The notes beneath the pieces were generated by a model. That model worked only from the letters and a program-made list of their open reading frames with translations. It had not been told where the DNA came from and searched no databases. A program made the translations under genes and the position numbers. From an uncultured Bacteriovoracaceae bacterium (lineage in GTDB: Bacteria; Desulfobacterota; Desulfomonilia; UBA1062): a stretch of 64,000 nt of DNA. Below, one piece after another: positions 728 through 53,720 of this stretch (positions are counted from its first letter, which is position 1; each line of letters starts with the position of its first letter). The stretch spans positions 61,962 to 125,961 of the forward strand of contig CAZUDI010000003.1 of NCBI GenBank assembly GCA_964618975.1. Reading direction: 5' to 3'.

Positions 728-1207
728 TTACTCGGTGGTCGTGCGCAAGACGGCCGAATCCCGGACGTCCTGCACGCGTGAGGCCTCTAGTTCCGCCTGC
801 AGCATCTTCAGGCGCTGCCTGAGCTGCCGGACCTCATCCTGGAGCTCGGAACGCTCGCCTTCAAGTTCCAGGATTCTCTCGTCCAGGGACTTGAGCTCGA
901 CCGCCTTCTCCTGGGGGGTCTTGGCAAGTTCGGCCTTGACGGTGGCAAGCTCGGCGCCCAGCTCGGTCATGCGCTGCGTCAGGCCGCGGTTCTTGTGCTC
1001 GAGTGTGGCGATGTAATCGATGACCTCGGTCAGCACCTGTTTATAATCCCGGGGCCCGTTCCCCCGGTATTCCCAGATATAATATCCCAGCCCGAGCCCC
1101 AGGATGAAGATGATCAGGATACCGATCAGCGGGGCCCGCCAGCGGTTGCCCTTCTTTGCACCCCCGGCAGCCGGGGCGTCCGGGTTCTGTTTTGCGTTGT
1201 CGGCCAT
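728..1207 (-). CDS. hypothetical membrane-anchored coiled-coil protein
   Basis: ORF 728..1228; start chosen at MADNAKQ (ATG 1207) because GGGAGGG lies 5 nt upstream. One N-terminal TM helix (LIGILIIFILGLGLGYYIW) followed by a heptad-rich E/L/Q/R segment. No family recognised. Confidence 0.5.
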   Translation of the reverse strand: MADNAKQNPDAPAAGGAKKGNRWRAPLIGILIIFILGLGLGYYIWEYRGNGPRDYKQVLTEVIDYIATLEHKNRGLTQRMTELGAELATVKAELAKTPQEKAVELKSLDERILELEGERSELQDEVRQLRQRLKMLQAELEASRVQDVRDSAVLRTTTE

Positions 1208-1317
1208 AGCACCCTCCCTGAAAATCATGCTCTAGGACAGATCCCGCTCCGAGTCAAGAAAGAAGGCACACATTCCCCGGTTGTACGAGATCGCCCGATA
1301 TGCCATAGCAGATAGAT

Positions 1318-2295
1318 ATGGATATCCTGATCGTCAAGCTGGGGGCCCTGGGCGACGTGATCAACACCTTGCCGCTGGCCATCCATCTGCACGAGCAGCT
1401 CCAGGCGCGTATCCACTGGCTCTGCGAGCCCTTGAGCCTACCCCTGTTGGTCGAGCACCCGTATGTCGATTGCCCCATCCTCTTCGACAGGCACCGCTGG
1501 CAGACAAGCCTGCCCCGCGTGCTGCGTCTTATCCGGGGGCAACACTTCGAGTTGGTGCTGGACCTCCAGCGCATCGCCAAGTCCGCCCTCCTGGCCCTGT
1601 ATGCCAACGGTGAGCGCACCCTCGGCTTCGACAGGGCCAGGTGCAAGGAGATGACCTGGCTTTTGCCCTTCGAGCGCATCCCGCCCTGCCCGGGGGTCAC
1701 GCACATGGCTTTGCAATACCTGGAGTTCGCGACCTACCTGGGACTGCCACCTGGTACCCCGCGTTGGGAGATCCCGGTGAGTGCGGTGCCTCCCATCAGT
1801 CTCCCCGCGAGGTACGTCGTCCTGAACATCGGCGCCACCAAGCCTGCCAACCGCTGGCCAGCCGCCAGTTTCGCCGCGCTGACGCAGGCGCTCCAGAAAA
1901 GCTTCGGCCTGCCGGCCGTAATCACCGGAGGTCCGTCCGAGAAACCGATGGCCCGCGAGGTCATGGACCGGGCCCACCCCGGCACCATCGATCTCACGGG
2001 CCGGACCACGCTGGGCGAGCTCACCGCGGTCCTGGCCGGGGCCCTGGCCGTGGTGAGCTGCGATACCGGGCCGCTGCACCTGGCGGTGGCCCTGGGGCGC
2101 CCCGTGGTCGCCCTCTTCGGCCCGGCCGATCCGCGCCGCACCGGACCCTACCGGGGGGTGGTGATCCAGAAGGAGCTTGCCTGCGTCCCCTGCAACCGGC
2201 GCGAGTGCCCGGACAACATCTGCATGCAGCGCATCACGCCGCAGGAGATCATCGCACGGCTCGAGCCCCTCATCATTAAAACTAAAAATTCTTGA
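1318..2295 (+). CDS. ADP-heptose:LPS heptosyltransferase (glycosyltransferase family 9, WaaC/WaaF-like)
   Basis: N-terminus 'ILIVKLGALGDVINTLPL', then 'CDTGPLHLAVALGRPVVALFGP' and a C-terminal CxxC...C pattern, as in GT9 heptosyltransferases. 325 aa. Confidence 0.8.
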   Translation: MDILIVKLGALGDVINTLPLAIHLHEQLQARIHWLCEPLSLPLLVEHPYVDCPILFDRHRWQTSLPRVLRLIRGQHFELVLDLQRIAKSALLALYANGERTLGFDRARCKEMTWLLPFERIPPCPGVTHMALQYLEFATYLGLPPGTPRWEIPVSAVPPISLPARYVVLNIGATKPANRWPAASFAALTQALQKSFGLPAVITGGPSEKPMAREVMDRAHPGTIDLTGRTTLGELTAVLAGALAVVSCDTGPLHLAVALGRPVVALFGPADPRRTGPYRGVVIQKELACVPCNRRECPDNICMQRITPQEIIARLEPLIIKTKNS

Positions 2296-2304
2296 AGGGG
2301 GCGT

Positions 2305-2334
2305 GGGGGGAACTTCTTATAAGAAGTTCCCCCC
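2305..2334. terminator. perfect 30-nt palindrome; likely bidirectional intrinsic terminator between convergent genes
   Basis: GGGGGGAACTTCTTATAAGAAGTTCCCCCC is its own reverse complement (14-bp GC-capped stem). It sits between the heptosyltransferase stop (2295) and the minus-strand kinase stop (2414). Confidence 0.6.
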
Positions 2335-2413
2335 ACATAAATAAGGCAGGTCCGCGTTCCTCCCTCTTCGGGTGCAAATTCTCCTTCCTGACAAAGAAAC
2401 ACGACCATGGCGC

Positions 2414-3901
2414 TCAGTGCGCCGCCTCCCCCCAGCACTCGCGGCGGTCGCCTTCCCCGGTGCAGTAGAGGACCTGCTCGGAGACCGAGCGCCGCCACAC
2501 CGCAGCCAGAAGCGCGCGCGGGTCGTCGCCGGTGACCCCGGCATAGGCTTTCAGGAAGGCCAGGCGCACGGGCCGACCCACCTTGAGGGGGATGCTCGTG
2601 TTGAGCTGGACGAGATTCTTGAGCCGGCGTGAGCGGGAAAGGGAGCGCGCCTGGAGCACCCGGTCGGTGTCGAGCAGAAAGAACCGCGGAAGTTCCGGGT
2701 CGATCTTGAGGTTGCAGCCCTTGAGATCGGCGTGGTAGATGGCTGCCGCATGCAGCTTGCCGATGATGCGGCCGAGCTCCCGGGCCAGGGCGTAGCGCTT
2801 GCGGGGGGCCAGCGTCTCATACCGGCAGCATAGAAACTGGTCGAGATCGGGCTCTGCCAAGGCCCCGGTGATGAGCGCGCTGCTGCGATCAGTCATGAGG
2901 ACCAGCGCCACAGGGGGCGCCGTGGCGAACCCGTGCATGTTGAGGGTCAGAAGCCCTTGCCAGGACCTCAGCGCATAGGGTTGCTGTGCGGGACGGGTGC
3001 GACAATAGGATTTCACACAGAGCCTTTCCACCAGCGTGATCTGGGTCTTGTGCTGCTGTTTGAGAACCTGGGTGCCGCTCTCAATGTTCGCGGTGTGGCG
3101 CGCGAGCACCGCGTCCACATCCAGCTCGATGCCCGCCATGACATAGGCCCTGTATCCGGGTCCCTCAAACTGCTGCATGAGGTCACGGTCGCGCAGCAAC
3201 CCCCTGACCCAGCGGGTCACCACCTGCCGGCGCACACGCCGGGAGCGCCGGACGATCTGCCGCGCACACGCCTCAAGGTCGGGCAGGTGCCCGAGACGCT
3301 CCAGGTAGCCCATGAGCTGCGAGTCAGGCACCTCGTAACGGCTGAGCACCTGCGCAAAGAGACGCACCGCGTCACGACGCCTGAGAAAAGCGTGTTCCCG
3401 GATCTCGTAGGCATCCAGAAACCAGGGGCGCCCATCTTCGTCGAGGATGACGTTCCCCGGATGCATATCGGTAAAGGAGAAGTTGCCGCTCAGAAGTTCG
3501 AGGGCCAGCTCCAGCAGGATGGCGGCCTGTTCCGAGGGGGGCAGCACATGCATGTCTCTCCCCTGGGGGATGGCCCGGGTGACGAGCGCCGAAAGCGCCC
3601 CCAATCTGACGTGGTCCACCACCTCGGGCACCCGCACCCCCTTGTCCGCCAGCCGAGCGAGCATGCGGGCCTCGTAGCCGGTCTTGGGCCGCAGGCGGTT
3701 TCTCAGGCGTGCGAAAGGCCCCCGGGGATCGCAGACCTTCACATAGTAGAGATCCCGGCCGTCTTGTGAGAGCCGGTACACGCTGCGCTCGGACTTGGCC
3801 TGCACCAGTTCCCACGTACAGCCAGGGCAGCATTGTGAAAGTGATCCCTGCAGCCGCCCGAGGGATTCCCCTCTGGAAACATGTGCGTACTTGACCTCCA
3901 T
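2414..3901 (-). CDS. tandem two-domain lipopolysaccharide kinase (Kdo/WaaP/InaA family) protein
   Basis: Start set at MEVKYAHV (ATG 3901), which is preceded by AAGGAGGG. N-terminal kinase-like half has 'DMHPGNVILDEDGRPWFLDAYEI'; C-terminal half has 'YHADLKGCNLKIDPELPRFFLLDTDRV'. Both are the catalytic-loop pattern of the LPS-kinase family (PF06293-like). Confidence 0.7.
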   Translation of the reverse strand: MEVKYAHVSRGESLGRLQGSLSQCCPGCTWELVQAKSERSVYRLSQDGRDLYYVKVCDPRGPFARLRNRLRPKTGYEARMLARLADKGVRVPEVVDHVRLGALSALVTRAIPQGRDMHVLPPSEQAAILLELALELLSGNFSFTDMHPGNVILDEDGRPWFLDAYEIREHAFLRRRDAVRLFAQVLSRYEVPDSQLMGYLERLGHLPDLEACARQIVRRSRRVRRQVVTRWVRGLLRDRDLMQQFEGPGYRAYVMAGIELDVDAVLARHTANIESGTQVLKQQHKTQITLVERLCVKSYCRTRPAQQPYALRSWQGLLTLNMHGFATAPPVALVLMTDRSSALITGALAEPDLDQFLCCRYETLAPRKRYALARELGRIIGKLHAAAIYHADLKGCNLKIDPELPRFFLLDTDRVLQARSLSRSRRLKNLVQLNTSIPLKVGRPVRLAFLKAYAGVTGDDPRALLAAVWRRSVSEQVLYCTGEGDRRECWGEAAH

Positions 3902-3971
3902 GCTGCCCTCCTTACCACATCCGCAGGGAGGATGAAAACAAACGAAAGATCCCTTCCCCTGGTGCACGCGG

Positions 3972-4000
3972 TTGACAGCCGCCCGGGGCGTGTGTAAGGT
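3972..4000 (+). promoter_or_regulatory. sigma70-like promoter (TTGACA-N17-TAAGGT) for the GT2::kinase gene
   Basis: TTGACA at 3972-3977, a 17-nt spacer, TAAGGT at 3995-4000. It lies in the 106-bp divergent region between ATG 3901 (minus) and ATG 4008 (plus). Confidence 0.4.
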
Positions 4001-4007
4001 CTTGCGC

Positions 4008-5759
4008 ATGGCGGCAGGCAAGCAAATCGTCCATGATTTCCAACAGACCCCCGATGAATCCTCCCCTTTCGCCGAGCACCCTTCCCAGGTCAGCATCATC
4101 ATCGTGACCATGGGCGCAGACGCGATGCTCAAGGCCTGCATCCACTCGATTCAGGCCCGGGTAGACCTACCCCTCGAGATCATCATCGTCAACAACGCGG
4201 CCACCCCCCTGGATTTGGAGGACGCCCCCGCGCTCACAATCATCGAAAACGGCACCAATATGGGCTTTGCCCGCGCCGTGAACCGCGGCCTGGAGATGGC
4301 CGCCTCCCCTCTCGTGTGCCTGCTCAACTCGGACACGTACCTTACCGAGGACATCATCGCGCCCATGGTCGCCTTCATGCACACCCACGCGCGGGCCGGC
4401 ATCTGCGGGTTACAGCTGGTCTTCGGGGACGGCGCGCTGCAGAACTCCTTGGACATCTTCCCCAACCTGGCCACCGAGTTCCTCAACAAGTCCCTCCTGA
4501 AGCTCATCTTCCGCCGAAGCTACCCGAGCAAACGCTCGGGGTTCACGGCCCCGGTCAGGGTGCCCTCGGTGATCGGTGCCTGCATGATGATCAGACGCGC
4601 ACTCCTCGATACAATCGGGGACCTGGACGAGGGGTACTTCTTCTATCTCGAGGAGACCGACCTCTGCCGGCGGGCCTGGGACCATGGGTATGAGGTCTGG
4701 CACCTGCCGCAGCTGCGCCTCGTCCACTACCAGGGAGGCACAGCCCGCCGGAGCGATATCAGGCGCAAAATCGAGTTCCGCCGCTCGGTGATCACCTTCT
4801 TCCGGCGCCACAGGGGTCCGTTGCGGACCGCGCTGCTCGTCGCCCTCAGCGTCCTGAAGTCGCTCATCGAACTCGCAGGCGCCCTCCCGCTGGTCGTCAC
4901 AGAACGCGGAAGACAGCGCCTCATCACGGTCACGAGCCTGCTCCTCTGGTACCTGAGCGGCCGCCCCGAGGGCTGGGGACTGGAGCGCACCCACCCGCTC
5001 TACGAGAAGAGCAGGGCTCACGGCTACACCTGGTTTCTCAAACCCGGGAAAGACCTTCCCTCTCCGACGCGTGATCCGCAGGCCTTCATGGAGGGCTTAA
5101 GGTGCGTCCTCAATCTCTCGCGCACGGCCTGTGTGAAATCGGGACAGTTGGACGGAAAGACGATCTTCATCAAGCGCTACAACTTCAAGGGCTGGCGTGA
5201 TGCCTGCAAGAACCTTTTCCGCAAAAGCCGCGCGCTCAGGGCCTTCGAGTCGGCCCTCCTGCTCGAGAACCTGGGGGTCCCCACCCCGGCGGTGGTCTTC
5301 GCCTGTGAAAGGCGGATCCTGGGGGTGCTCGTGGTATCCTATATCGCCACCGAGGGGATCGACGCCCTGGACCTGGTGCGCCATCAGGCGCGGCACGGCT
5401 TCACGGATGACGATATCCGCAGGCTTGCCCGCTGCATGCGACGCCTGCATGAGATGGGCATCCTGCACGTGGACCTCAAGGGAGAAAATCTGCTCATCGA
5501 CGATAAGCACACCATCCACCTCATCGATCTCGATCGCCTGCGGCGGGTGCGCCATTTGGGGCTGAAGGCGCGTGCCAAGAACCTGAGTTACCTGAACGCC
5601 TCCTTCGCCACCACCCTGCCAGGGGAGATGCGAGCGCTGTTCCTCGACGAATACCTCAAAGGGCACACGGATCTGGAACGCCAACGTCCCCGCCTGGAGG
5701 CGCTCATCCACGGCCACACGCAGCATCGGCTGCGCACACGTTACCCTGCCCCTCAGTAG
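4008..5759 (+). CDS. fusion protein: family-2 glycosyltransferase (N-terminal) + LPS kinase (Kdo/WaaP family) domain (C-terminal)
   Basis: N-terminus 'VSIIIVTMGADAMLKACIHSIQ...EIIIVNNAATP' and 'CLLNSDTYL' (GT-A fold, GT2). C-terminus 'KRYNFKGWRDA...LHEMGILHVDLKGENLLIDDKHTIHLIDLD' is an LPS-kinase catalytic loop. Start taken at MAAGKQ (4008); the ORF is open from 3972. Confidence 0.7.
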   Translation: MAAGKQIVHDFQQTPDESSPFAEHPSQVSIIIVTMGADAMLKACIHSIQARVDLPLEIIIVNNAATPLDLEDAPALTIIENGTNMGFARAVNRGLEMAASPLVCLLNSDTYLTEDIIAPMVAFMHTHARAGICGLQLVFGDGALQNSLDIFPNLATEFLNKSLLKLIFRRSYPSKRSGFTAPVRVPSVIGACMMIRRALLDTIGDLDEGYFFYLEETDLCRRAWDHGYEVWHLPQLRLVHYQGGTARRSDIRRKIEFRRSVITFFRRHRGPLRTALLVALSVLKSLIELAGALPLVVTERGRQRLITVTSLLLWYLSGRPEGWGLERTHPLYEKSRAHGYTWFLKPGKDLPSPTRDPQAFMEGLRCVLNLSRTACVKSGQLDGKTIFIKRYNFKGWRDACKNLFRKSRALRAFESALLLENLGVPTPAVVFACERRILGVLVVSYIATEGIDALDLVRHQARHGFTDDDIRRLARCMRRLHEMGILHVDLKGENLLIDDKHTIHLIDLDRLRRVRHLGLKARAKNLSYLNASFATTLPGEMRALFLDEYLKGHTDLERQRPRLEALIHGHTQHRLRTRYPAPQ

Positions 5760-6130
5760 CTCACGCCATCGACGCTGGCCGTTTCTCCCCGGATGAGCAC
5801 ATACACCCGGTTGGGAATGCACACGATCGAGCTTCCCGCTTTATGGATACGGCCTCTGCGCAGGCACAGCTGATGCGGACAGGGGGAGGAGAGCATGCTC
5901 ACCTCCCCGCCTTCGATGACCACCACACTCTCCCCCAGGGGCCCCTCGAGGCGTACGGTGACGTCCCGATCAAGGGGGAGGACGGCCACGAGGCCCTCCT
6001 GCGAACGGATCTCTACCTCACATCCCGGTGGCGCCCTCCAGGTGTCTATGGCGAACCATGCCCCGCCCACCATCAGGAGCGCGATGATCAGGACCACGTC
6101 GCCGCGGGTAAGTGGCGGCAGTCTTTGCAT
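5753..6130 (-). CDS. NusG domain II-like membrane protein (PF07009/DUF1312-like)
   Basis: Start at MQRLPP (ATG 6130) with AGGGGGGG upstream. N-terminal TM helix, then 'SSPCPHQLCLRRGRI...SSIVCIPNRVYVLIRGE', matching the CP..LC / VCLPNRV pattern of NusG_II proteins. Confidence 0.55.
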   Translation of the reverse strand: MQRLPPLTRGDVVLIIALLMVGGAWFAIDTWRAPPGCEVEIRSQEGLVAVLPLDRDVTVRLEGPLGESVVVIEGGEVSMLSSPCPHQLCLRRGRIHKAGSSIVCIPNRVYVLIRGETASVDGVSY

Positions 6131-6234
6131 ATCCCCCCCTATACGACGAACAGCCGTCAAACACAAACGCTGCCCTTCGCGCTCAAGGACCGGCTTGACC
6201 TTGAGCGCCGATCCTCCTATAGTCGGGGTCCAAG

Positions 6235-7167
6235 ATGGATATGGAGCAGATACGCAAGCGAGGCATCAGATTCACCAGCATCAACGAACGCCTCCACATC
6301 ATTCACGGCACCGGCCGCAGCCGTTCCCCCTTCGCCAACGCCTTCCTCGTAACCGACCGCGTCTGCGCCCTGATCGATACGGGCTGCGGCCTGGATATCC
6401 TCACGAAACTCCTGGATCTCCAGCCCATAGAACTCGTCATCAATTCCCATTCGCATCCCGATCACACGGCCGGCAACTGGCTGGTACAGGGAATCTGCTC
6501 CCCCGAGATCGCCGTGCCAATCGAGGCCGCCTCCAGCATCGGGAGCGCCGACAAACTCGCACCCAGGCTCGCCGGTGCGGAGTTGGCATCCTGCTGGCTG
6601 GAGACGTCCCTGTCCGTCACCGGGTTCAGGGACTTCACCCTCTCATCGCATTTCAGTGAAGGCCACGAGTTCCGCCTGGGGAGAACACGCCTGGTGGCCC
6701 TGCATACCCCGGGACACCTGGCCGACCACTACTGTCTGTGGGAGCCGGAGGAAAGGATTGTCTTCGGCTTCGATATCGACCTGAGCCCCTTCGGCGGATG
6801 GTATGGCAATGCGGAGTCCGACCTGGGACGCTTCAGGGCCTCCGTGGACCGGCTGCTCTCCCTGCCGGCCGAGGTCTATCTCTCGTCGCACGCCCGTCCG
6901 GTCAGGGGGGCGCATATCGACCGGCGCCTCAAGGCCTACCGGTCCATCTTCGACGTCCGGCGCGAACGCATCAGGGCCCTCGTGCCCGTCAACGCCTGGA
7001 AGGGCCCGGAGGACATCGCGCACCTTTCCCCCATCTACGACGTGCATCACCCCGACTCCAAGACCCTGCTGTTCTACAACGAGACCCAGATGGTGCGCAA
7101 ACACCTGGACGAACTCGTGCTTGCGGGAGAGCTGGTGCACCTAGATGGCGGCTATCGCCGCCGCTAG
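6235..7167 (+). CDS. MBL-fold metallo-hydrolase
   Basis: 'INSHSHPDHTAGN' (the HxHxDH motif), a downstream 'LHTPGH', and further His/Asp ligands. 310 aa. Confidence 0.8.
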   Translation: MDMEQIRKRGIRFTSINERLHIIHGTGRSRSPFANAFLVTDRVCALIDTGCGLDILTKLLDLQPIELVINSHSHPDHTAGNWLVQGICSPEIAVPIEAASSIGSADKLAPRLAGAELASCWLETSLSVTGFRDFTLSSHFSEGHEFRLGRTRLVALHTPGHLADHYCLWEPEERIVFGFDIDLSPFGGWYGNAESDLGRFRASVDRLLSLPAEVYLSSHARPVRGAHIDRRLKAYRSIFDVRRERIRALVPVNAWKGPEDIAHLSPIYDVHHPDSKTLLFYNETQMVRKHLDELVLAGELVHLDGGYRRR

Positions 7168-13268: not shown

Positions 13269-14228
13269 ATGCAGAACACCATCAGTATCATACTGGCCGC
13301 CGGAAAGGGAACGCGGATGAAGTCCGCCCTCCCTAAAGTTCTCCATGAGATCCTGGGGTTGCCGCTCATATACTACCCCATTACCCTGGCTGAGGCCTTC
13401 AGCAACGTGGTGGCGGTGGTGGTGGGCCACGGTCGGGAGCAGGTGGAAGAGAGGCTTTTACCCTTTCAGGTTCGCACCGTGGTTCAGGATCCCCCCCTCG
13501 GCACGGGACATGCCGTGCTGCAGGCCCGGGATATCCTGTGTGAGTGCCCCTTTGAGAACGTCATCGTCCTGCCCGGCGACATGCCACTCGTCGACAAGGC
13601 CTCCCTTAAGGGGCTCATCGACCTTCAGACCTCTTCTCACGCCGCCCTGGGCGTCCTGACCGCCACCCTCGACGACCCTACTGGCTACGGCCGCATCCTT
13701 CGGGATCAAGACGGCCGGGTGCGGGCCATCGTGGAACACAGCGAGGCCAGTCAGGAGGAGCGCTCCATCCGCGAGATCAACACCGGGGTCTATGTCATCC
13801 GCCGCGACTTCCTGCTCGAGGCCGCTTCGCGCCTGGCGCCGGACAATACCAAGGGTGAATTCTACCTGACGGATATCGTCGCCATGGCGCCCGACGCCGT
13901 CGGGTTCCCCATGGCCGACGCCGAAGGTGCGCATGGCATCAACTCCCAGGCCCAGCTCGCCTGGGCGGCCGGAATCATGCAGCAGCGCATCAACCGCGCC
14001 CATATGGATGAGGGACTTACCCTCATAGACCCGCACACAACCTGGATCAGCCCCCTGACACGCCTCGGACGTGACGTGACCGTCTGGCCCAACGTCCACA
14101 TCCTGGGTGAAAGCGTGGTCGGGGATCACGTCACCATCCTTCCCAACACCTGGATCAGGGACGCCTGCATCGCCAGCGGCCGCAGCGTCCCCCCCGGAAG
14201 CATCATCGAGGGTAAATCTGCCGTCTAA
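13269..14228 (+). CDS. GlmU-like sugar-1-phosphate nucleotidyltransferase with a truncated left-handed beta-helix (320 aa)
   Basis: 'IILAAGKGTRMKSALPKVLH' is the GlmU uridyltransferase signature. The pyrophosphorylase domain is complete, but only about 3 hexapeptide turns remain before the stop at 14228, and no acetyltransferase-domain continuation exists in any frame before lon. Confidence 0.65.
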   Translation: MQNTISIILAAGKGTRMKSALPKVLHEILGLPLIYYPITLAEAFSNVVAVVVGHGREQVEERLLPFQVRTVVQDPPLGTGHAVLQARDILCECPFENVIVLPGDMPLVDKASLKGLIDLQTSSHAALGVLTATLDDPTGYGRILRDQDGRVRAIVEHSEASQEERSIREINTGVYVIRRDFLLEAASRLAPDNTKGEFYLTDIVAMAPDAVGFPMADAEGAHGINSQAQLAWAAGIMQQRINRAHMDEGLTLIDPHTTWISPLTRLGRDVTVWPNVHILGESVVGDHVTILPNTWIRDACIASGRSVPPGSIIEGKSAV

Positions 14229-27786: not shown

Positions 27787-28023
27787 TCAGGGCTCGCACT
27801 TGTGAATGAGCCCCTCAACCGTGGCCAGCGCATCCGTTGATACCTGGGCGGCCCTGACATTCTCCTCCTGAATCTTGAGGTACACCTCCTGGCGGTGAAC
27901 CTCGACACTCTTGGGCGCCTTTATGCCCAGTTTCACCTGAGTGCCTTTGATATCAACTACATATATCTGGATCTCGTCCCCGATAGCGACGGCTTCGCCG
28001 ACCTTGCGCGTCAAAATGAGCAA
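27787..28023 (-). CDS. csrA: carbon storage regulator CsrA (flagellar-cluster type)
   Basis: '[48 protein letters not shown]' is the canonical CsrA fold with the GxxIxV...VxxHRxE motifs. Confidence 0.9.
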
Positions 28024-28062
28024 TCCTGCCTCCCAGGCATGCTTTTGGGGTTTTCTACACCA

Positions 28063-29823
28063 TTATTTCACCGAAAGCAATGTCTGCAACATCTCGTCGG
28101 CTATGGATATGAGCTTGGCTGAGGCCTGGTAGAGGTACTGATTCTTAAGCAGGTTGGCCATCTCCTCGTCCAAGTTCACCCCGGATACGGACTCCTTGCG
28201 GCTGAGGTACTGCCCGAGGAGCGTATCGTTGAACTGCGCGTTCATCTTGGCATTCTGGGTGTGTACCCCCACCTCGGAAACAAAGGCGCTGAAGAAGGCA
28301 TCCATGGTGGTACGCGTACCATCCATGGTGACCACCGTGTCCTGCAGGCCGAAAATAGCGCTCGCCACACTGTTGTCACCCGGGGCCACCGCGTTGTTCG
28401 AATCCAGGTACCCGGCACAGATGCGCTGCGGATCCGAAACCAGGGCGGCATTGATCCCGACGGTTTCGGAAAGGTCTCCCAGAGAACTGTCCCAGGAGAA
28501 GAAGGTGTTCACCCCCAGCACGGCCAGGGCATGGCTACTCCCCGCCGCATCCGAAGTGGGCTGGATAGCCAAGGTGTAACCGGCGTTGGCCTGAAGGGTA
28601 AAGTATCCGTCGGTACCGCCGCTCAGGGCGGCGCTGATCTCCCCGCCGCCGGCGGCTGCCTCGGCGTTGATCTCGTCTCTGAGGGCCTGCACCGTGCTCC
28701 CCGCCGGGTCGATAGTATAGGTGCTGGCCACCTGTCCGTCGGCATCAAAGACCACGATATCGAACGACCCGCTGGCGTTAAAGTGGCTGCCGAAGGTGAG
28801 AGCACCGATATCATCCGCGAGCCCGACATCCACCGTGCCGGACAAGGAGCTCACCGCCTGGAGCCCGACCCCTTCGGCGTGCAGGGAGTTGACCTGCCAG
28901 ACAAGTTCCTCGGTGAGCGTGTTGAGGGAATCGAGGTAGTCTCCGATGCGGGTGTCGCGCACCTCCACCCAGCCGGCGATCTTGCCGCCCTCGAGACGGT
29001 GGGTGATATCCACCTGCCGGCCGCTCTGGTCGTTCCAGAAGACATCGGTATATCCCGTGGTGGCGTTGTTACCCACGCTCAGCTCGTAGCTCTCGTTCCC
29101 CAGCACCAGGGGGGTGCCGCCCAGGATATAGACCATGACCTGGCCGCTTTGCTCCTCCTCGTAGTAATTGATGTCCATGTACTCGGAGAGCTCTTCCAGA
29201 AGCAGGTCCCGGCGATCCCGGAGGTCGTTGGCGTTGATCATGCCGTCGATCTCGACACTGGAGATGGTGCCGTTCAGCTCGGCGATCTGGGAAGTGAGGG
29301 AATTGACGTACTCCACCGAACCATCGATGTTGCGGTCAAGGTTGCGCTGATACGATCGCAGATTGTAGTCTATATCCTGTATGGCCTGCACCAGGTTGTC
29401 GCTCTGGGCGATCAGGGCCTCGCGCTCGGGGATACCGTCGGGATTGTTGCTCAGGTCGCTCCAGGCATTCCAGAACTCGCCCATGAGATAATTGAGGCCG
29501 TAGCCGTCGCTTTCGTTGAAGATCACCTCGATCTCCTCCATGGCATCACTCTGGGCGCTCCAGTAATAGTACTCCGAGTTCTTGATATTGAGCTGTTTGT
29601 TGATGAACTCGTCATAGGCCCTGGTCACCTCGGTGGCCCTCACGCCGGTCCCGATCTGACCCGGTCCCATCGTAATGGGATAGTTGGGCTCCACCAGCAG
29701 GGACTGTTTGGAATAACCCTCGGTATTGGCATTGGCGATATTGTGTGAGGTGACCTCGATGGCCAGCTGTGAAGAATACAGGGACCACCGTGCGATGTCG
29801 AGCGCTCCGCCGATTCCCGGCAT
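28063..29823 (-). CDS. flgK: flagellar hook-associated protein 1 FlgK
   Basis: 586 aa. N-terminus 'IARWSLYSSQLAIEVTSHNIANANTEGYSKQ' (flagellar rod/hook N-terminal consensus), C-terminus 'LLKNQYLYQASAKLISIADEMLQTLL' (FlgK C-terminal helix). Confidence 0.85.
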   Translation of the reverse strand: MPGIGGALDIARWSLYSSQLAIEVTSHNIANANTEGYSKQSLLVEPNYPITMGPGQIGTGVRATEVTRAYDEFINKQLNIKNSEYYYWSAQSDAMEEIEVIFNESDGYGLNYLMGEFWNAWSDLSNNPDGIPEREALIAQSDNLVQAIQDIDYNLRSYQRNLDRNIDGSVEYVNSLTSQIAELNGTISSVEIDGMINANDLRDRRDLLLEELSEYMDINYYEEEQSGQVMVYILGGTPLVLGNESYELSVGNNATTGYTDVFWNDQSGRQVDITHRLEGGKIAGWVEVRDTRIGDYLDSLNTLTEELVWQVNSLHAEGVGLQAVSSLSGTVDVGLADDIGALTFGSHFNASGSFDIVVFDADGQVASTYTIDPAGSTVQALRDEINAEAAAGGGEISAALSGGTDGYFTLQANAGYTLAIQPTSDAAGSSHALAVLGVNTFFSWDSSLGDLSETVGINAALVSDPQRICAGYLDSNNAVAPGDNSVASAIFGLQDTVVTMDGTRTTMDAFFSAFVSEVGVHTQNAKMNAQFNDTLLGQYLSRKESVSGVNLDEEMANLLKNQYLYQASAKLISIADEMLQTLLSVK

Positions 29824-29824
29824 A

Positions 29825-30253
29825 TCAGACCCCCTTCCGCACGAGTGGCAATGCCAACCTGGCCTTCTTCCCCGAACGGTCGTAGCCGGTCTGCAGCCCG
29901 GCGAAGAAGGGCTCGAGTTGGGCGCGCACCTCGCTGAGACGCTTGGTGACCAGTTCCCTGGCCGACTCGTTCAGGCCCCTCACGCGCGTCCACGACCCCG
30001 CGAGATCCTGCTGCAGACCCCTGATCCGCTGCGCCTGGCCGCGGGAGGGTTCTCCGGCCGGGTCTGACATGCCCTCGCGGTTTTCGGCAATGGTGTGCAT
30101 CAGCCGTTGCTTTTCGGGAAGCGATTCCTCCAGTTCCTCCACATCACCGGCTAGAATATAACCCAGTTCCTCTTCGAGGCACGCTCCGAGGCGGGCGACA
30201 AGCTCCTTTTCCCTCTCAAGACAGGCTTCCATCTCCTGATACGTCATCGCCAT
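29825..30253 (-). CDS. flgN: FlgN-family flagellar export chaperone (putative)
   Basis: About 142 aa, helical, acidic. Sits directly upstream of flgK, the usual flgN position. Start at MAMTYQEME (30253). Confidence 0.5.
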   Translation of the reverse strand: MAMTYQEMEACLEREKELVARLGACLEEELGYILAGDVEELEESLPEKQRLMHTIAENREGMSDPAGEPSRGQAQRIRGLQQDLAGSWTRVRGLNESARELVTKRLSEVRAQLEPFFAGLQTGYDRSGKKARLALPLVRKGV

Positions 30254-30294
30254 TCTCCCCCCTGACGGGTATGCCGGCACCCTGGTCCCGTACA

Positions 30295-30627
30295 TCACCG
30301 CCCCTCTTTCTTATCGGTCAAGGGGACCGATGTCTGAGTGGGCGTCTCCGCTGAGATTCCCTGGATGCGGGCGATCCTCTCGTAGAGCACCTGGGCGATA
30401 CCGATGCCCTCTCCGGCCGTGGCCCCCCTGGCCATGGCCATATAGAGCAGGTCCTTGGAAATCTCCCCCGAGAGTCCCTCGCCCATGAAACCCTCACCGA
30501 CCCCGGACCCCGTGGCCTTGAGCAGCTGGTGGACGAAGATGGACTCGAATTCACGGCAGGCCTCGCGCAGCGCCCGCTCGGGATGCTGGGCCTTCATATG
30601 GTAGAGCGCCGCCACATTGCCGATCAT
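30295..30627 (-). CDS. rod-binding protein (FlgJ N-terminal-domain homologue lacking a glucosaminidase domain)
   Basis: 'ALREACREFESIFVHQLLKAT' matches the FlgJ N-terminal / rod-binding signature (PF10135). Start ATG 30627 forms an ATGA overlap with the flgI stop. About 110 aa. Confidence 0.6.
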   Translation of the reverse strand: MIGNVAALYHMKAQHPERALREACREFESIFVHQLLKATGSGVGEGFMGEGLSGEISKDLLYMAMARGATAGEGIGIAQVLYERIARIQGISAETPTQTSVPLTDKKEGR

Positions 30628-31712
30628 ATGACCTCCAGATCGGCGTACAGCGCGTCCGAACGCTTGATGCACTGCAGGATCACCACCAGGTCCCGCGGGG
30701 TCACCCCGATGGCATTGAGGGCCCCCACCAGGTCCCCGATGGTTGTGCCGTCCGGCAGCACCACGAGTCTGCGCCCCCCCTCCTCCACCGTCACCCCGCT
30801 CCCGGGGACCACGGTGGTCACCCCCTGGGAGAAGGGCTGCGGCTGAGAGACGCCAGGTTCTTCCGTGATCTTGATGCTCAGGTTGCCGTGGGCGATAGCC
30901 ACGCTGGAGATACGCACATTGTCGCCCATCACCACGGTGCCGGTACGCTCGTTCACCACCACCTTGGCCCGCGAATCGGGGTTCACATCCACCCCCTCGA
31001 TCATGGCCACGAAGTCGACAATCCGCTCATGATACGCCTCTGGCACCTGCACACGGATCGTGGAAAGGTCCTCGGCATGCGCCACGCCCTGGCCAAGCCG
31101 CTTGTTGAGCGAGCCCACGAGCCGGTGCGCCGTGGTGAAGTCCGGGATGTCCATCACGAGCCGCAGCTCATTCCCCAGGGTGAACTCCGTGGAACGTTCC
31201 ACTACCGCCCCGCGGGGAATCATTCCCACCGTGGGGAAATTCTTGGTGACGCCGCTGCCGCTCTCACCCGCAACGGCAAAGCCGCCCACGGAGATGGCGC
31301 CCTGCCCCAGGGCATACACCCGCCCGTCGGGACCGTAGAGCGGGGCCGCAATCAGCGTACCGCCCGCCAGGGACGTGGCATCCCCCAGCGAGGAGATGGT
31401 GCAGTCGAGGTATTGTCCGCTGCGGGCAAAGGGAGGCAGGATCGCCGTCACCATGACCGCGGCCACGTTCTTGACCTTGAGCGCGTTCGCATCCACGGTG
31501 ATACCCATGGTCCGCAGGAGATTGGCCAGGGAATAGACGGTGAACTGCGCGCCGGTCTTGTCGCCGGTACCGTTGAGCCCCACTACCAGCCCGTACCCGG
31601 CAAGGCGGTTCTCCCGCACGCCCTGGATCTCCACCAGGTCCTTGACCCGTACGCCGTAGGCCACGGGGGCCAAAAGCAGTATTCCCAATATGAGCAGCAG
31701 TATCTTTTTCAT
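30624..31712 (-). CDS. flgI: flagellar P-ring protein FlgI
   Basis: Signal peptide, then 'VRVKDLVEIQGVRENRLAGYGLVVGLNGTGDK', the conserved FlgI N-terminus. Confidence 0.95.
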   Translation of the reverse strand: MKKILLLILGILLLAPVAYGVRVKDLVEIQGVRENRLAGYGLVVGLNGTGDKTGAQFTVYSLANLLRTMGITVDANALKVKNVAAVMVTAILPPFARSGQYLDCTISSLGDATSLAGGTLIAAPLYGPDGRVYALGQGAISVGGFAVAGESGSGVTKNFPTVGMIPRGAVVERSTEFTLGNELRLVMDIPDFTTAHRLVGSLNKRLGQGVAHAEDLSTIRVQVPEAYHERIVDFVAMIEGVDVNPDSRAKVVVNERTGTVVMGDNVRISSVAIAHGNLSIKITEEPGVSQPQPFSQGVTTVVPGSGVTVEEGGRRLVVLPDGTTIGDLVGALNAIGVTPRDLVVILQCIKRSDALYADLEVI

Positions 31713-31720
31713 CCTTCACC

Positions 31721-32413
31721 TCAGAACGGCCAGAGCTTGTCCATGGCCCGCGACACGATACCCCTTCTCTGCTGGTCGCCGATGATACCGTTCCCATAAT
31801 AGTCAATCCTGAGATCGGCGATGGAGGTCGATGCAATGGTGTTGTTCGAGCTGACATCATCGGGCCGGATGATTCCCGAAAGCAGGATATACTGCACCTC
31901 CGAATTCACACGGATCTGTTTCTTACCCTCGATCATCAGGTTGTTTGACGGCAACACCCTGACCACGCGGGCCGAGATTGTGGCCTGGATGCTACCCTTG
32001 CGCGAGGTGTCCCCGGTGCCCTCAAACTCGCTAGAGGAAGAGGCCCCGAGAGCAGGGGTCAGGGCATAACCCTTGACGGAGGCCCTGTCGAGTGGCAGAC
32101 CCAGGAGATTGGTGATCGAGCTGTCCGCCTTATTCGTCCGCTCCGCCTTGGTTTCGGCCTCCTTGCTGGCCGACGAGTTCTCCGCGATCTGCACCACCAC
32201 GAGATCACCCACGCGGCGTGCCTTGGATTCAGCATAGATGTCCGAAAATTTGGCGCCCGGCGACCACAGGGATCCGGGTATGGCGACGCTTTCCACGCGC
32301 TCCTCCACCGGTGGCGCCAGGGTATCCACCTCCAGGCGCGGCGGCCCCTCGTGCGCACAGCCCCCCATAATCAGGGCCAGCATCACCAACATGATGCACA
32401 TGTGTCTCTGCAT
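31721..32413 (-). CDS. flgH: flagellar L-ring lipoprotein FlgH
   Basis: Lipobox 'IMGGC'; 'GSLW...GDLVVVQIAENSSASKEA' and a C-terminal 'GNGIIGDQQRRG' match FlgH. Confidence 0.9.
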   Translation of the reverse strand: MQRHMCIMLVMLALIMGGCAHEGPPRLEVDTLAPPVEERVESVAIPGSLWSPGAKFSDIYAESKARRVGDLVVVQIAENSSASKEAETKAERTNKADSSITNLLGLPLDRASVKGYALTPALGASSSSEFEGTGDTSRKGSIQATISARVVRVLPSNNLMIEGKKQIRVNSEVQYILLSGIIRPDDVSSNNTIASTSIADLRIDYYGNGIIGDQQRRGIVSRAMDKLWPF

Positions 32414-32422
32414 ATCTTCCTC

Positions 32423-33379
32423 CTAGAAAACTACCCGTACGCAGGAAGGAGCAATAATGGTGCCAAACACCTGCTTACCGGAGGTCACATTCCTCACCGG
32501 TATGCGTTGACTGAGGCCGCCGTCCCTGAGTGCCACCCCCTTGTCCCGCACCACCAGCCTGTCGCGGGAGGCCTCGATAATCACCGTCTCTCCCCGGCAC
32601 ACCACGGGCCGGGGCTCGACATTGGCCTGCAGGATGGGCGCCTCGGCGCGGATGGCCGTCTTGGCACGCATGCCCGTACAGGACGCCTTGTCGGTCATGA
32701 GGCTCTCGAGGTCGCAGACCTTCAGGGGCCGCATGACCAGGGCCGCCTCTGTGATCATCTCCCCGCGCCGGATGGGGGCACGCGCCACAGGGACCTGGGT
32801 CTCCAGCGATACCCGGGCAGAGATGCGCACACGGGTGGATGATGGTCCCTCCCCGAAGCTCAGGATCATGCTCACCGGACCCAGAAAATCCTCGCGGGGG
32901 GAAATTTTTGCCTGCGGACCCTGTCGCTCATTGCCCCACACCCTCACACTGAGCGGGGCCCTGATGTCTTCAATAACGATCCGCCCCCTGCCCGCATAGG
33001 GCTGTTCACGCATCAGCGCGCGGGTAAAGATCGTCTCCAGTTGCTCACGCACGATCTCCGTATACAACGGCGCAACCAGCACCTCGCTGGCACCTCTCAC
33101 CTGCAGGGGAAGGCTCACCTGGCGGGCAATCCTCTCCCTGATCCAGGCTGCCGATACGCTACTCCCCGCTGGGGACACGGGGGTGCGCATGAGACGTAGC
33201 GCGCTCAGGCGCTCGGCGTCATGGCCCTCGATCCGGGCCAGGTCCCCGAGCGTCACAACCGAATGAGGAATCTGAACGCGCTCTTTGAGCACCACGGTGA
33301 TGCCTGACGAGGCCAGAACAGGCCCTCCCAGCAACAGCACACTAAAAACCAAGATCAGACCGCGGCCGCTGATCTTCAT
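32423..33379 (-). CDS. flgA: flagellar basal-body P-ring formation chaperone FlgA
   Basis: Signal peptide, with a SAF/FlgA-type C-terminal domain ('GETVIIEASRDRLVVRDKGVALRDGGLSQRIPVRNVTSGKQVFGTI'). Sits upstream of flgH/flgI. Confidence 0.8.
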   Translation of the reverse strand: MKISGRGLILVFSVLLLGGPVLASSGITVVLKERVQIPHSVVTLGDLARIEGHDAERLSALRLMRTPVSPAGSSVSAAWIRERIARQVSLPLQVRGASEVLVAPLYTEIVREQLETIFTRALMREQPYAGRGRIVIEDIRAPLSVRVWGNERQGPQAKISPREDFLGPVSMILSFGEGPSSTRVRISARVSLETQVPVARAPIRRGEMITEAALVMRPLKVCDLESLMTDKASCTGMRAKTAIRAEAPILQANVEPRPVVCRGETVIIEASRDRLVVRDKGVALRDGGLSQRIPVRNVTSGKQVFGTIIAPSCVRVVF

Positions 33380-34158
33380 GACCGCAGGTTATTGGCCACC
33401 TGCAGCATGGAATCCGCCGTCTTGATGGCCTTGGAATTCAGCTCGTAGGCGCGCTGGCCGGCGATCATATTGATCATCTCCTCCACGGCGTCCACATTGG
33501 ACATCTCCAGATATCCCTGAGCGATGGTGCCCATATTCTCTGTTCCGGCCTCTCCCTGAATGGGATCGCCGGAGGCCGGGGTGGGAATATAGGCGTTGCG
33601 GCCGATGGATTTCAGCCCCGCCGGGTTGGTGAAGGTGTACAGCGAGATCTCACCGGTCGCCAGGATCTCGTCGCCCGCCGACATGCAGGTGAGGTTGCCG
33701 TCCTGATCGATATTGATGATCGCGGTGTCCGCCGGCACCGCGAAGTCCGGCTGGAGCCGGTCACCGCGTGAGTTTACGATATAGCCGTCTGAGTCAATCT
33801 TGAAGGCCCCATCGCGGGTGTAGAGCTCATCACCATCCGAAAGCAGCAGGAAGAACCCGTTGCCCTCAATGGCCAGATCCAGTTGGTTCTTGGTCTCCAT
33901 ATAGTCGCCCTGGGTAAAGATCTTCTGGACCGCCACCGGCCGGGTGCCCATGCCCACCTCGATACCCACCGGCACGGTGCCGCCCTCGGCGGTGGGGCTG
34001 CCCTTTTCGCCATAGGCTTCATAGAACAGGTCTTCGAACTCGGTGCGGCTCTTCTTGAACCCCGTCGTACTGACGTTGGCCAGATTGTTGGCCATCACAT
34101 CGATCATCATCTGCTGGGCGCCCATGCCGGACGCCGCGGTCCACATCGCTCTAATCAT
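33376..34158 (-). CDS. flgG: flagellar basal-body distal rod protein FlgG
   Basis: 260 aa. 'MIRAMWTAASGMGAQQMMIDVMANNLANVSTTGFKK' and C-terminus 'YLEMSNVDAVEEMINMIAGQRAYELNSKAIKTADSML' are canonical. Confidence 0.9.
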   Translation of the reverse strand: MIRAMWTAASGMGAQQMMIDVMANNLANVSTTGFKKSRTEFEDLFYEAYGEKGSPTAEGGTVPVGIEVGMGTRPVAVQKIFTQGDYMETKNQLDLAIEGNGFFLLLSDGDELYTRDGAFKIDSDGYIVNSRGDRLQPDFAVPADTAIINIDQDGNLTCMSAGDEILATGEISLYTFTNPAGLKSIGRNAYIPTPASGDPIQGEAGTENMGTIAQGYLEMSNVDAVEEMINMIAGQRAYELNSKAIKTADSMLQVANNLRS

Positions 34159-34181
34159 GATCCATCCTCCCTCTGTTGCCC

Positions 34182-34919
34182 TTAAGCCAGCACTCCCACA
34201 TTGCGGATGGAGAGTGAGTACGTGTCTGAAAATGACTTGATCACCTTCTGGAAGGCCTCATACGCCCGCTGGGTGGTGATCAGCCCCACCATCTCCCGGA
34301 TGGGCTCCACATTGGACAGCTCGAGGCTCCCCTGCCGCACGGACAGCGCCTCCACCGGCGCGGGCACGAAACCCTCCTGCACGGCGAACATCCCATCGCC
34401 GCCCCGAATGAGGGCCTCCGGCGGGATGTCCACCACCCGCAGCACATCCACGACCCTCCCGTCGAGGACCACCGTGCCGTCGGTCTCAACGCTCACCGTG
34501 CCCCCGCCCAGGGGCAGATCCCCGCCCTCGCCCTGGACCGGGTCCCCGTGCGCATTCACGAGCACACCCTCCATGGATAGCTGGAAGGCCCCCGCACGCG
34601 TATAGCGCTCGCCGTCGAGGGTGTTTACCACAAAGAATCCCTCCCCCGTCACCGCCAGATCGAGGGGGTTAGCTGTCTCCCTCAATGGACCCGGGGTCGT
34701 ATCAATGAAGGGGCTCTCGGCGAGCACATCCACCGGTACCCGCTGGTATTGCCCGGAGGCAAGCGGGGTGGTGTCCAGCAGACGGATGTACTGCTCAAAC
34801 GCGAGGGCGTCCTTCTTGAAACCCGAGGTCCCCGCATTGGCCAGATTATGGGAGACGAGGGCCAGATTCTCCTCCATTGCCCTGGCTCCGGCAGCCGCCG
34901 TATAGATACCCTGATCCAT
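34182..34919 (-). CDS. flgF: flagellar basal-body rod protein FlgF (or second FlgG-type rod protein)
   Basis: Start at MDQGIYTAAAGARAMEENLALVSHNLANAGTSGFKK (ATG 34919) after a GGAGGA RBS. C-terminus 'LELSNVEPIREMVGLITTQRAYEAFQKVI' is the rod-protein consensus. Confidence 0.85.
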   Translation of the reverse strand: MDQGIYTAAAGARAMEENLALVSHNLANAGTSGFKKDALAFEQYIRLLDTTPLASGQYQRVPVDVLAESPFIDTTPGPLRETANPLDLAVTGEGFFVVNTLDGERYTRAGAFQLSMEGVLVNAHGDPVQGEGGDLPLGGGTVSVETDGTVVLDGRVVDVLRVVDIPPEALIRGGDGMFAVQEGFVPAPVEALSVRQGSLELSNVEPIREMVGLITTQRAYEAFQKVIKSFSDTYSLSIRNVGVLA

Positions 34920-34943
34920 GGTCGATCCTCCTGAGGCCCTCTG

Positions 34944-34959
34944 AGCAATAAGGGTGCCA
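34944..34959 (-). promoter_or_regulatory. sigma54 (-24/-12) promoter TGGCAC-N5-TTGCT upstream of flgF
   Basis: On the minus strand: TGGCAC-CCTTA-TTGCT, an exact match to the RpoN consensus TGGCAC-N5-TTGCW. It ends about 25 nt upstream of ATG 34919. Lying inside the longer annotated ORF, it supports the shorter start. Confidence 0.6.
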
Positions 34960-35157
34960 GCTACGGCAGAACCTCTTAAAGCCAGGCCCCGACACCGACA
35001 CAGCGGCAAATATTGCCCCTGGCCCGGCAGACGGTGGCCGGTCCCCCTGTCAGCGGGACCCCACAAGCGCCCGGTACGAATCTTGTGGCGGTCGACAGGC
35101 AGACCCTTTCGAACCGCAGGCAGCGGCCGGGGGCAGATCCCGGATGTATGGGGCTCT

Positions 35158-35787
35158 CTAGGAGGCGGAGTTGTGCTTGATGCGGTAGGCCAGCGAGATG
35201 AGCGAGGGGAAGAGGCTCACGTTCTCGAGGGTGATGTCGGGCGGCACACGCAGATTGATGGGGGCGAAATTCCAGATCCCCTTGATGCTGGCGTCCGCCA
35301 TGAGGTCGGCCACCTGCTGGGCCACGTCGGCCGGGGTGGTGATGATGCCGATGGTGATGCGTTCGCGCTTGATCACCTCGGGCATGCGTCCCACGGGGTA
35401 GGCGGGAACGCCGAGAATGCGCGTGTCGATCAGGTCTTCGCGCTTGTCGAAGATGGCCCTGATCACGAAGCCCTTTTCGCGGAATCCCGGATAGCGCAAG
35501 AGGGCAAAACCCAGGCTGCCGAGCCCCACGAGCGCCATGTTGGCGCCGGACGAGATCCCCAGCACCTCTTCCAGGATGGCCTTGAAGCTCGCTGTGCTGT
35601 AGCCGAAGGACGAGCTGTGGATCTTACCCAGATATTGGATATCCTGCCGGATGGTGGAGGGTGTGAGACCCAGGGACGAGGCGATCATGTTGGAGGAGAT
35701 CCACTTGCTGCCCTGCGCCTCCATATGGGCGATATATTCATAGTACAGGGGCAGGCGCGCAGAAACCGCCAGGGGGATCTTGAGCAT
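35158..35787 (-). CDS. rex: redox-sensing transcriptional repressor Rex
   Basis: 'LPLYYEYIAHMEAQGSKWISSNMIASSLGLTPSTIRQDIQYLG' (winged helix) plus a Rossmann fold 'MALVGLGSLGFALL' with the GxGxxG NADH site. Confidence 0.9.
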   Translation of the reverse strand: MLKIPLAVSARLPLYYEYIAHMEAQGSKWISSNMIASSLGLTPSTIRQDIQYLGKIHSSSFGYSTASFKAILEEVLGISSGANMALVGLGSLGFALLRYPGFREKGFVIRAIFDKREDLIDTRILGVPAYPVGRMPEVIKRERITIGIITTPADVAQQVADLMADASIKGIWNFAPINLRVPPDITLENVSLFPSLISLAYRIKHNSAS

Positions 35788-35924
35788 GGACCCTCTTCCT
35801 TATGATAATCTATTATTTAACATATAAATCAAAATAGCTTTCTTTCTGTGTATTGTCAACTATAGATATCAGGTACCTATATCATTCGAAGGCTATATAT
35901 TCTCCATTCCATGGACCCTTCGCC

Positions 35925-35942
35925 TTGTTAATTTTATGACAA
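35925..35942. promoter_or_regulatory. candidate Rex operator (imperfect inverted repeat TTGTTAATTTTATGACAA)
   Basis: 14-15 of 18 positions match the Rex consensus TTGTGAAnnnnTTCACAA. It lies in the rex / flgM divergent intergenic region, where autoregulation would be expected. Confidence 0.3.
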
Positions 35943-35978
35943 TTTCCGGTACGCCCCCCCACTTCAATCGAATAACGT

Positions 35979-36005
35979 TAAAGCTTTTTCCCTGACAACC
36001 GATAG
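35979..36005 (+). promoter_or_regulatory. sigma28 (FliA)-type promoter TAAA-N15-aCCGATAG upstream of the small ORF-flgM pair
   Basis: TAAA at 35979-35982, 15-nt spacer, ACCGATAG at 35998-36005, against the consensus TAAA-N15-GCCGATAA. flgM is classically sigma28-dependent. Confidence 0.5.
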
Positions 36006-36042
36006 ATCTGTAGTGGCTTTCAAAAAAGATAAGGAGTGCGTA

Positions 36043-45107: not shown

Positions 45108-45133
45108 GGAAATCATAGAACGGAGGAACATGT

Positions 45134-45676: not shown

Positions 45677-45679
45677 CCC

Positions 45680-53622: not shown

Positions 53623-53720
53623 ACATCCACCATTCCGCCAGGCCACAGGCACGAGCCGTTGCGATCAGCGGTGATGCCGGTCCATCTATGGCGCCCCCCC
53701 TTAAAAGGAGAAACATACGC

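Follow-up and report, generated by a model that had tools for sequence, protein, structure and literature searches.

Among the described kinases closest to the proteins considered here, KdkA, WaaP and WapP are small, separate enzymes. KdkA is a stand-alone protein of ~240 aa that works beside a heptosyltransferase on a 3-deoxy-D-manno-octulosonate (Kdo)-lipid A acceptor, and WaaP, the heptose I 4-kinase (PDB 6DFL), as well as Pseudomonas WapP are single-domain proteins of 244-268 aa. Some enzymes of envelope-glycan synthesis unite two consecutive or cooperating activities in one polypeptide, i.e. HldE (kinase/adenylyltransferase), WbdD (kinase-methyltransferase) and WahA (glycosyltransferase-deacetylase); to our knowledge, none of these joins a family 2 glycosyltransferase (GT2) to a Kdo/WaaP-family kinase. 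In Pseudomonas, the published gene order of the lipopolysaccharide (LPS) core locus is waaF-waaC-wapG-waaP-wapP-wapQ-PA5006, with wapO beyond (PMC3147165; PMC8005017), and for PA5006 the literature gives no more than the label of a putative LPS kinase (PMC3147165). Phosphorylation of lipid A-core by WaaP reportedly takes place at the inner membrane's cytoplasmic side, ahead of transport by MsbA (PMC3147165). The window analysed here, i.e. the whole stretch of 64,000 nucleotides from contig CAZUDI010000003.1 of an uncultured sulfate-reducer relative, encodes two proteins of a different build: a GT2::Kdo-family kinase fusion and, divergent to it, a tandem kinase with two kinase-like domains. Judged by sequence comparison, both fusions are genuine and recur in relatives, yet what they offer is a rearrangement of enzyme types already known.

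The fusion gene (4008..5759, forward strand) encodes 583 aa. A GT-A fold GT2 domain (4086..4757, ~residues 27-250) is followed by a three-helix linker (4758..4997, ~residues 251-330, with helices at 251-268, 271-295 and 299-316 in the AlphaFold2 (AF2) model) and by a Kdo/WaaP-family kinase domain (4998..5747, ~residues 331-580) bearing K389, E414, H487-x-D489-L-K491-x-x-N494 and D507. Against Pfam, the protein matches PF00535 (Glycos_transf_2) at 8.6e-19 and PF06293 (Kdo) at 1.3e-14, the latter with 57.4 bits for a gathering score of 21.3. The GT2 domain shows the expected hidden Markov model (HMM) match, GT-A fold and metal-binding and base motifs, and the AF2 model built on the family alignment is compact and two-domain (pLDDT 83.6, pTM 0.81). 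The kinase loop quoted for this protein in a preliminary description of the locus, HVDLKGENLLID, was found in the translation of the plus-strand open reading frame (ORF). Among 66 homologues, the GT2 motifs N107-x-D109 and E215-E216-x-D218 are kept without exception; in the kinase domain the same is true of K389 and N494, while D507 is found in 64, D489 in 62 and E414 in 58.

The fusion recurs in ~66 protein clusters at 50-58% identity over the full length, with both Pfam domains. It is encoded as one ORF in 34 species (one genome per GTDB species), in each of which a single tblastn match runs from about residues 14-28 to 579-583. The genomes are without exception metagenome-assembled genomes (MAGs) of uncultured Desulfomonilia, Syntrophaceae or 'Deltaproteobacteria'. 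Close relatives thus keep the fusion at full length, and it is real rather than a frameshift, an eventuality that the preliminary description had raised. In public databases the proteins of this family carry generic automatic names, and neither a GT2::Kdo-kinase fusion nor a tandem Kdo kinase was found described in the literature, a weak negative because most subscription journals lay outside the search. In the fusion, two well-known enzyme types are arranged in a new way, which, given the precedents of HldE, WbdD and WahA, should be no great surprise to specialists.

Two further groups of fusions were observed. Longer GT2::Kdo proteins of 747-835 aa (P0074, P0076, P0080, P0085), with ~30% identity, are present in MAGs of Desulfobacterales and Planctomycetes, and their extra C-terminal ~200-280 aa have no Pfam match. 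In a small sub-clade of the family (P0024, P0027, P0029, P0031), HVYLKGEN replaces HVDLKGEN, i.e. the catalytic Asp is changed to Tyr; two of these four proteins also have Lys for the alphaC Glu, and in two the D-x-D motif of the Mg loop has Gly for one Asp. All four retain intact GT2 motifs, and their kinase domain is probably inactive as judged from these substitutions.

The tandem kinase gene (2414..3901, reverse strand) encodes 495 aa, in which two protein-kinase-like domains are joined by a long helix. The N-terminal domain (3182..3832, ~residues 24-240) carries K55, E77, D145-x-H-x-G-N150 and D163, and the C-terminal domain (2432..3181, ~residues 241-490) K297, H390-x-D392-L-K394-x-x-N397 and D411, with S313 in place of the alphaC Glu. 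Both catalytic loops quoted earlier for this protein, HPGNVILDEDG and HADLKGCNLKID, are present in the translation of the minus-strand ORF. Codon 144 (3470-3472) specifies Thr in the window and Pro in the otherwise identical database protein P0121; this is a variable position directly N-terminal to the catalytic Asp145. The AlphaFold model built on the family alignment is compact with two domains (pLDDT 92.5, pTM 0.86), and in the fold comparison the protein-kinase-like fold came closest to WaaP.

The domain HMM check proposed in the preliminary description returned the expected families for the fusion, for the neighbouring family 9 glycosyltransferase (GT9; PF01075) and for the C-half of the tandem kinase, which matches PF06293 at 2e-12 (43.5 bits when scanned as a domain, gathering score 21.3), but not for the N-half. 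Scanned alone against Pfam, the N-half has no PF06293 match and gives APH PF01636 at 25-27.6 bits (gathering score 23.2) together with weak ABC1 and RIO1 matches. As the N-domains of 8/8 distant family members tested match PF06293 alone (31.7-72.7 bits), and the window's N-domain is collinear with them (hhalign to broad-family N-domains, E 4e-41), the latter appears to be a divergent member of the same family. The three kinase domains of the locus are homologous as judged by hhalign, all pairs aligning in register: N-half with C-half at a probability of 95.9% (E 6e-9), N-half with fusion kinase at 96.9% (E 2e-10) and C-half with fusion kinase at 99.1% (E 4e-19). A special kinship of the fusion kinase with the tandem C-domain type was considered and dropped, the hhalign match being equally strong with broad-family N-domains (8.8e-39) and C-domains (5.7e-37).

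Catalytic residues were assigned by reference to WaaP (K51, E78, H161-R-D163, H168, D188), in which the K51A, D163A and D188N variants fail to support growth (PMC6147952). The preliminary description had named the lack of catalytic residues in one lobe as grounds for rejecting its claim; by alignment to WaaP, the catalytic Lys and Asp are present in all three lobes. The full set (beta3 Lys, alphaC Glu, catalytic Asp, Asn or His, Mg-binding Asp) is complete in the tandem N-domain and in the fusion kinase, and the tandem C-domain alone is atypical. Calling both tandem domains 'complete' therefore holds for the Lys, Asp, Asn and Asp found in each, and was slightly generous for a C-domain devoid of the alphaC Glu. 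In 36 close relatives, the N-domain keeps K55, D145 and D163 in 36/36, E77 in 35/36 and N150 in 34/36, and this set is found in 65/65 members of the broader alignment. In the C-domain of the same close relatives, H390 is kept in 36/36 and K297, D392, N397 and D411 in 35/36 each, and 62-63/65 distant relatives retain the Lys, the HxDxKxxN loop and the Mg-binding Asp. The position aligned with WaaP E78, S313 in the window, is Ser, Ala or Gly in 36/36 close relatives, and the predicted alphaC helix (309-322) of the C-domain has no conserved acidic residue among either the 36 close or the 65 distant homologues.

A search with the profile of the tandem family against 1.84 billion representative proteins yielded 6310 matches (E<=1e-3), and 136 representative clusters reached E<=1e-30. 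Among the best 150 matches, most are 460-600 aa long and aligned over both domains; the tandem architecture is shared by ~36 close clusters and by most of the 136. Among 65 diverse members, all of which match PF06293, R39, K55, E77, D145, N150 and D163 are invariant and K297, W314, D392, K394, N397 and D411 near-invariant. One match is P0350, a 479-aa 'lipopolysaccharide kinase InaA family protein' of Pseudomonas sp. R11F. Its gene directly follows the series GT9-GT9-GT4-Kdo(268 aa)-Kdo(244 aa)-Kdo(250 aa) and has a carbamoyltransferase gene downstream; this arrangement, rather than any alignment to the sequence of PAO1, is the basis for equating it with PA5006. Positions 78-464 of the tandem-family profile align with residues 56-443 of P0350 in one collinear stretch (175 bits).

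The PA5006-position protein resembles the window's tandem kinase in its two-domain, collinear architecture of ~480-495 aa with catalytic loops in both domains, in the Ser at the WaaP-E78 position of the C-domain and in the clustering of its gene with GT9 heptosyltransferases. Both show the marks of the family, two kinase-like domains in ~460-600 aa, collinear, in a heptosyltransferase/kinase cluster. The Pseudomonas protein differs in having only ~26% identity to the window's protein and in its partners: three single-domain kinases and a GT4 precede its gene, and the window gene stands with the GT2::kinase fusion and one GT9. By these profile matches, the tandem kinase joins, as a new and distant member, a widespread family that exists already but is uncharacterised. 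The premise of the preliminary description that inner-core kinases are separate, single-domain polypeptides is thus mistaken for the tandem protein, whose large family includes the PA5006-position gene.

The third gene of the locus (1318..2295, forward strand) encodes a GT9 heptosyltransferase of 325 aa, which matches PF01075 at 1.3e-37 (129.9 bits, gathering score 22). Its top NCBIfam model is TIGR02193, heptosyltransferase I (HepI), at 130.6 bits, under the cut-off of 185.3, and among reference enzymes its best BLASTP matches are Pseudomonas WaaC (100 bits) and then E. coli WaaC (76 bits). By these scores it is most like heptosyltransferase I (WaaC), i.e. HepI-like, without reaching equivalog status. 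In 31/34 loci, an ortholog of this GT9 (53-61% identity) is no more than ~3 kb away from the fusion; in 13 loci it stands directly upstream in the same direction and abuts or overlaps the start of the fusion, and in 12 it is directly upstream and divergent to the fusion. The tandem kinase belongs to the same cluster in 15/34. In many relatives, the cluster also holds a second GT9 (~30% identity; HepII/III-like), a radical S-adenosylmethionine (SAM) protein of 405 aa that fits no NCBIfam equivalog, and a Gfo/Idh/MocA-like oxidoreductase of 307-310 aa, placed between the tandem kinase and the fusion or next to them (e.g. L003 4265-7415, L004 6329-9741). A radical SAM enzyme is unusual in an LPS core cluster. 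The cluster's radical SAM, Gfo/Idh/MocA and second GT9 genes were searched for in the whole window and are absent from it, so the earlier term 'compact module' fits the window, but not the many relatives with these additional genes. Stand-alone GT2 homologues (33-39% identity) adjoin one or two GT9 genes in MAGs of Planctomycetes, Opitutus, Spirochaetaceae, Myxococcota and Tectomicrobia (L037-L049, L053, L059, L064), with separate Kdo-type kinase genes nearby in L038, L044 and L049. These WbbL/GlfT2-like enzymes differ from the fusion in having no kinase attached, and all are uncharacterised.

The mechanically called ORFs of the two kinase-bearing genes (2414-4141 and 3972-5759) overlap at their 5' ends. 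Public-assembly gene calls on identical DNA and the onset of family conservation place the starts at 3901 for the tandem kinase (MEVKY, 495 aa) and at 4008 for the fusion (MAAGK, 583 aa), which leaves a divergent spacer of 106 bp (3902..4007). This spacer is presumed from gene geometry only to carry promoters; a promoter and terminator scan of 1100-6300 gave no sigma-70 consensus match in it and no signal above shuffle expectation. At its 3' end, the fusion gene is overlapped by 7 nt by a convergent gene for a NusG_II-domain protein (PF07009; 5753-6130, reverse strand), which is kept downstream of the fusion in 21/34 related loci and is followed in 17 of these 21 by a metallo-beta-lactamase-fold gene.

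Further along, the window contains an outer-membrane and lipid A cluster (40870-54755, forward strand) comprising genes for a lolC/E-like permease and an ABC ATPase, bamA, skp, lpxD, lpxA, a Gfo/Idh/MocA gene, lpxB, msbA, lpxK, a GmhB-like HAD (heptose-bisphosphate) phosphatase and two LpxL-like acyltransferases; neither lpxC nor waaA was seen in it. The lipid A genes indicate that the organism makes LPS. The Gfo/Idh/MocA gene between lpxA and lpxB has UDP-GlcNAc 3-dehydrogenase as best match (217 bits, cut-off 450), and a dehydrogenase gene at this place presumably hints at a GlcN3N-type lipid A.

That the locus acts on the LPS inner core, as had been proposed, is well supported because of the conserved linkage to GT9 genes and the lipid A genes in the same window. 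It probably represents a module for inner-core assembly and phosphorylation at the cytoplasmic face in an uncultured Desulfomonilia/Syntrophaceae-like bacterium (Thermodesulfobacteriota). In this best-supported reading, its parts would be a HepI-like heptosyltransferase, a bifunctional glycosyltransferase-kinase and a PA5006-like double kinase. Every step of the mechanism is drawn by analogy. Nascent Kdo-lipid A, still on the cytoplasmic face of the inner membrane and not yet flipped by MsbA, would be the target of all three proteins. Heptose from ADP-heptose would be added by the HepI-like GT9, and a further sugar, taken from a nucleotide sugar, by the fusion's GT2 domain, with the inversion of anomeric configuration seen in GT2 enzymes. 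The fused Kdo/WaaP-type kinase domain would carry out ATP-dependent phosphorylation of a core sugar hydroxyl, on heptose or Kdo, and the tandem kinase, the distant relative of the Pseudomonas PA5006-position protein, would add one or two more phosphates. The fusion would set both activities at 1:1 and on the same membrane-bound acceptor; it probably fixes their stoichiometry and co-locates them, and could plausibly couple sugar addition to phosphorylation in one reaction sequence, as the preliminary description had envisaged.

Several points weigh against this assignment. All kinase domains fall below the KdkA and WaaP equivalog cut-offs: KdkA (NF002475) is the best curated kinase model with 54.2 bits for the fusion and 33.5 for the tandem kinase (cut-off 142), and WaaP/RfaP (NF011703) gives 27.5 and 25.8 bits (cut-off 170). 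A reference set was translated from the Pseudomonas locus (WaaP, WapP, WapQ and PA5006-like) and from E. coli K-12 (WaaP and WaaY). Compared with this set through family HMMs, the fusion kinase scored 69 bits with the PA5006-like C-half, 46 with WapP, 31 with E. coli WaaP and 23 with WaaY, all weak. With scores far under the cut-offs and such weak preferences, the identification of the kinase domains as KdkA, WaaP, WaaY, WapP or WapQ was dropped; the loop also differs, reading HxDLKxxN here, akin to eukaryotic protein kinases, and HRDCYICH in WaaP. The GT2 domain is most like WbbL/GlfT2-type enzymes, its nearest curated and structural relatives being a rhamnosyltransferase model, MftF and GlfT2, the match to which spans 280 residues and extends past the GT-A core. 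WbbL/GlfT2-type enzymes act on polyprenyl-linked acceptors and are not known to act on lipid A-core. The tandem C-domain has no alphaC Glu, and in WaaP the E78A variant, impaired yet viable, shows a 128-fold rise in EDTA sensitivity (PMC6147952). No waaA gene (Kdo transferase) was seen in the annotated parts of the window. Finally, all fusion homologues come from uncultured genomes, and neither the fusion nor the tandem family has a biochemically characterised member.

The kinship of the GT2 domain with the rhamnosyltransferase model, MftF and GlfT2, enzymes of lipid-linked or non-LPS acceptors, together with kinase scores under the equivalog cut-offs, leaves room for a role outside the lipid A-core. 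The fusion, and perhaps the tandem kinase, would then act on a polyprenyl-diphosphate-linked intermediate of O-antigen, capsule or exopolysaccharide, which the kinase might terminate or modify with a phosphate, like the kinase-bearing chain terminators of some O-antigen pathways. This is unlikely in view of the near-universal and often translationally coupled linkage to an LPS-type GT9, which extends to the unfused GT2 homologues of other phyla. Furthermore, neither in locus L001 nor in the window is the cluster flanked by export or polymerase genes for O-antigen or capsule, and the Pseudomonas relative of the tandem kinase lies inside an inner-core operon. An origin of either arrangement in assembly, frameshift or gene calling is hardly credible: only the 5' overlap of the raw mechanical ORFs could be cited for it. 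The fusion protein is identical to P0001 in NCBI and ENA, and the same 583 aa are found on independent ENA contigs from two metagenomic samples; its full-length orthologues come from many studies, and the tandem architecture recurs likewise, both proteins having compact two-domain models. The recurrence of both architectures across independent genomes and clusters excludes the artefact.

It is also rather improbable, though the alphaC helix of the tandem C-domain invites the idea, that at least one of the kinase-like domains is non-catalytic, i.e. a pseudokinase binding ATP or the LPS acceptor and positioning or regulating its partner. The tandem C-domain would be the likeliest candidate: its catalytic set is only near-invariant whereas that of the N-domain is strictly so. 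The four fusion clusters in which Tyr replaces the catalytic Asp and the GT2 is kept imply, in addition, that kinase chemistry is dispensable in some lineages. The catalytic residues retained in nearly all close and distant C-domains form a pattern unlike that of a decayed active site, however, and 62-66/66 fusion kinase domains likewise have the Lys, the HxDxKxxN loop and the Mg-binding Asp; moreover, WaaP E78A still supports growth (PMC6147952). A more elaborate version of the inner-core module combines an obligatorily coupled fusion, one step gating the other, with a tandem family, PA5006 included, that pairs an active kinase with an alphaC-Glu-less pseudokinase for LPS binding or regulation. 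Phosphorylation of Kdo or of the HepI-added heptose may create the GT2 acceptor, or the sugar added by the GT2 may be phosphorylated at once. This version is doubtful; if true, the gating would yield a phosphorylated inner-core chemotype unseen in model bacteria.

Other features of the window were noted in passing. At 13269-14228 (forward strand), a GlmU-like protein of 319 aa is encoded, whose match to the ~455-position GlmU models is confined to positions 1-320 and which lacks most of the left-handed helix of the acetyltransferase. A flagellar basal-body and hook-associated cluster occupies 27787-36538 (reverse strand), with flgM, rod genes, flgA, flgH, flgI, flgN and flgK, then csrA. A 449-aa ORF (55968-57317, forward strand) has no Pfam or NCBIfam match; a weak omptin-like gene and the lipid A acyltransferases lie close upstream of it, and a gene for a response-regulator/tetratricopeptide repeat protein close downstream.

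The understanding of LPS core synthesis is left unchanged by these observations, which add architecture and distribution but no new chemistry. Through the fusion, one GT2 subfamily becomes linked with Kdo-type kinases and GT9 heptosyltransferases, and the same linkage is seen for unfused homologues in several other phyla. This provides a testable annotation for many proteins of uncultured diderm lineages currently named 'GT2 family' or 'Bud32/InaA-like'. As for the tandem kinase, the family it shares with the PA5006-position protein reveals two kinase-like domains of differing conservation pattern in a putative kinase long left unassigned, which suggests specific mutants for the Pseudomonas protein.

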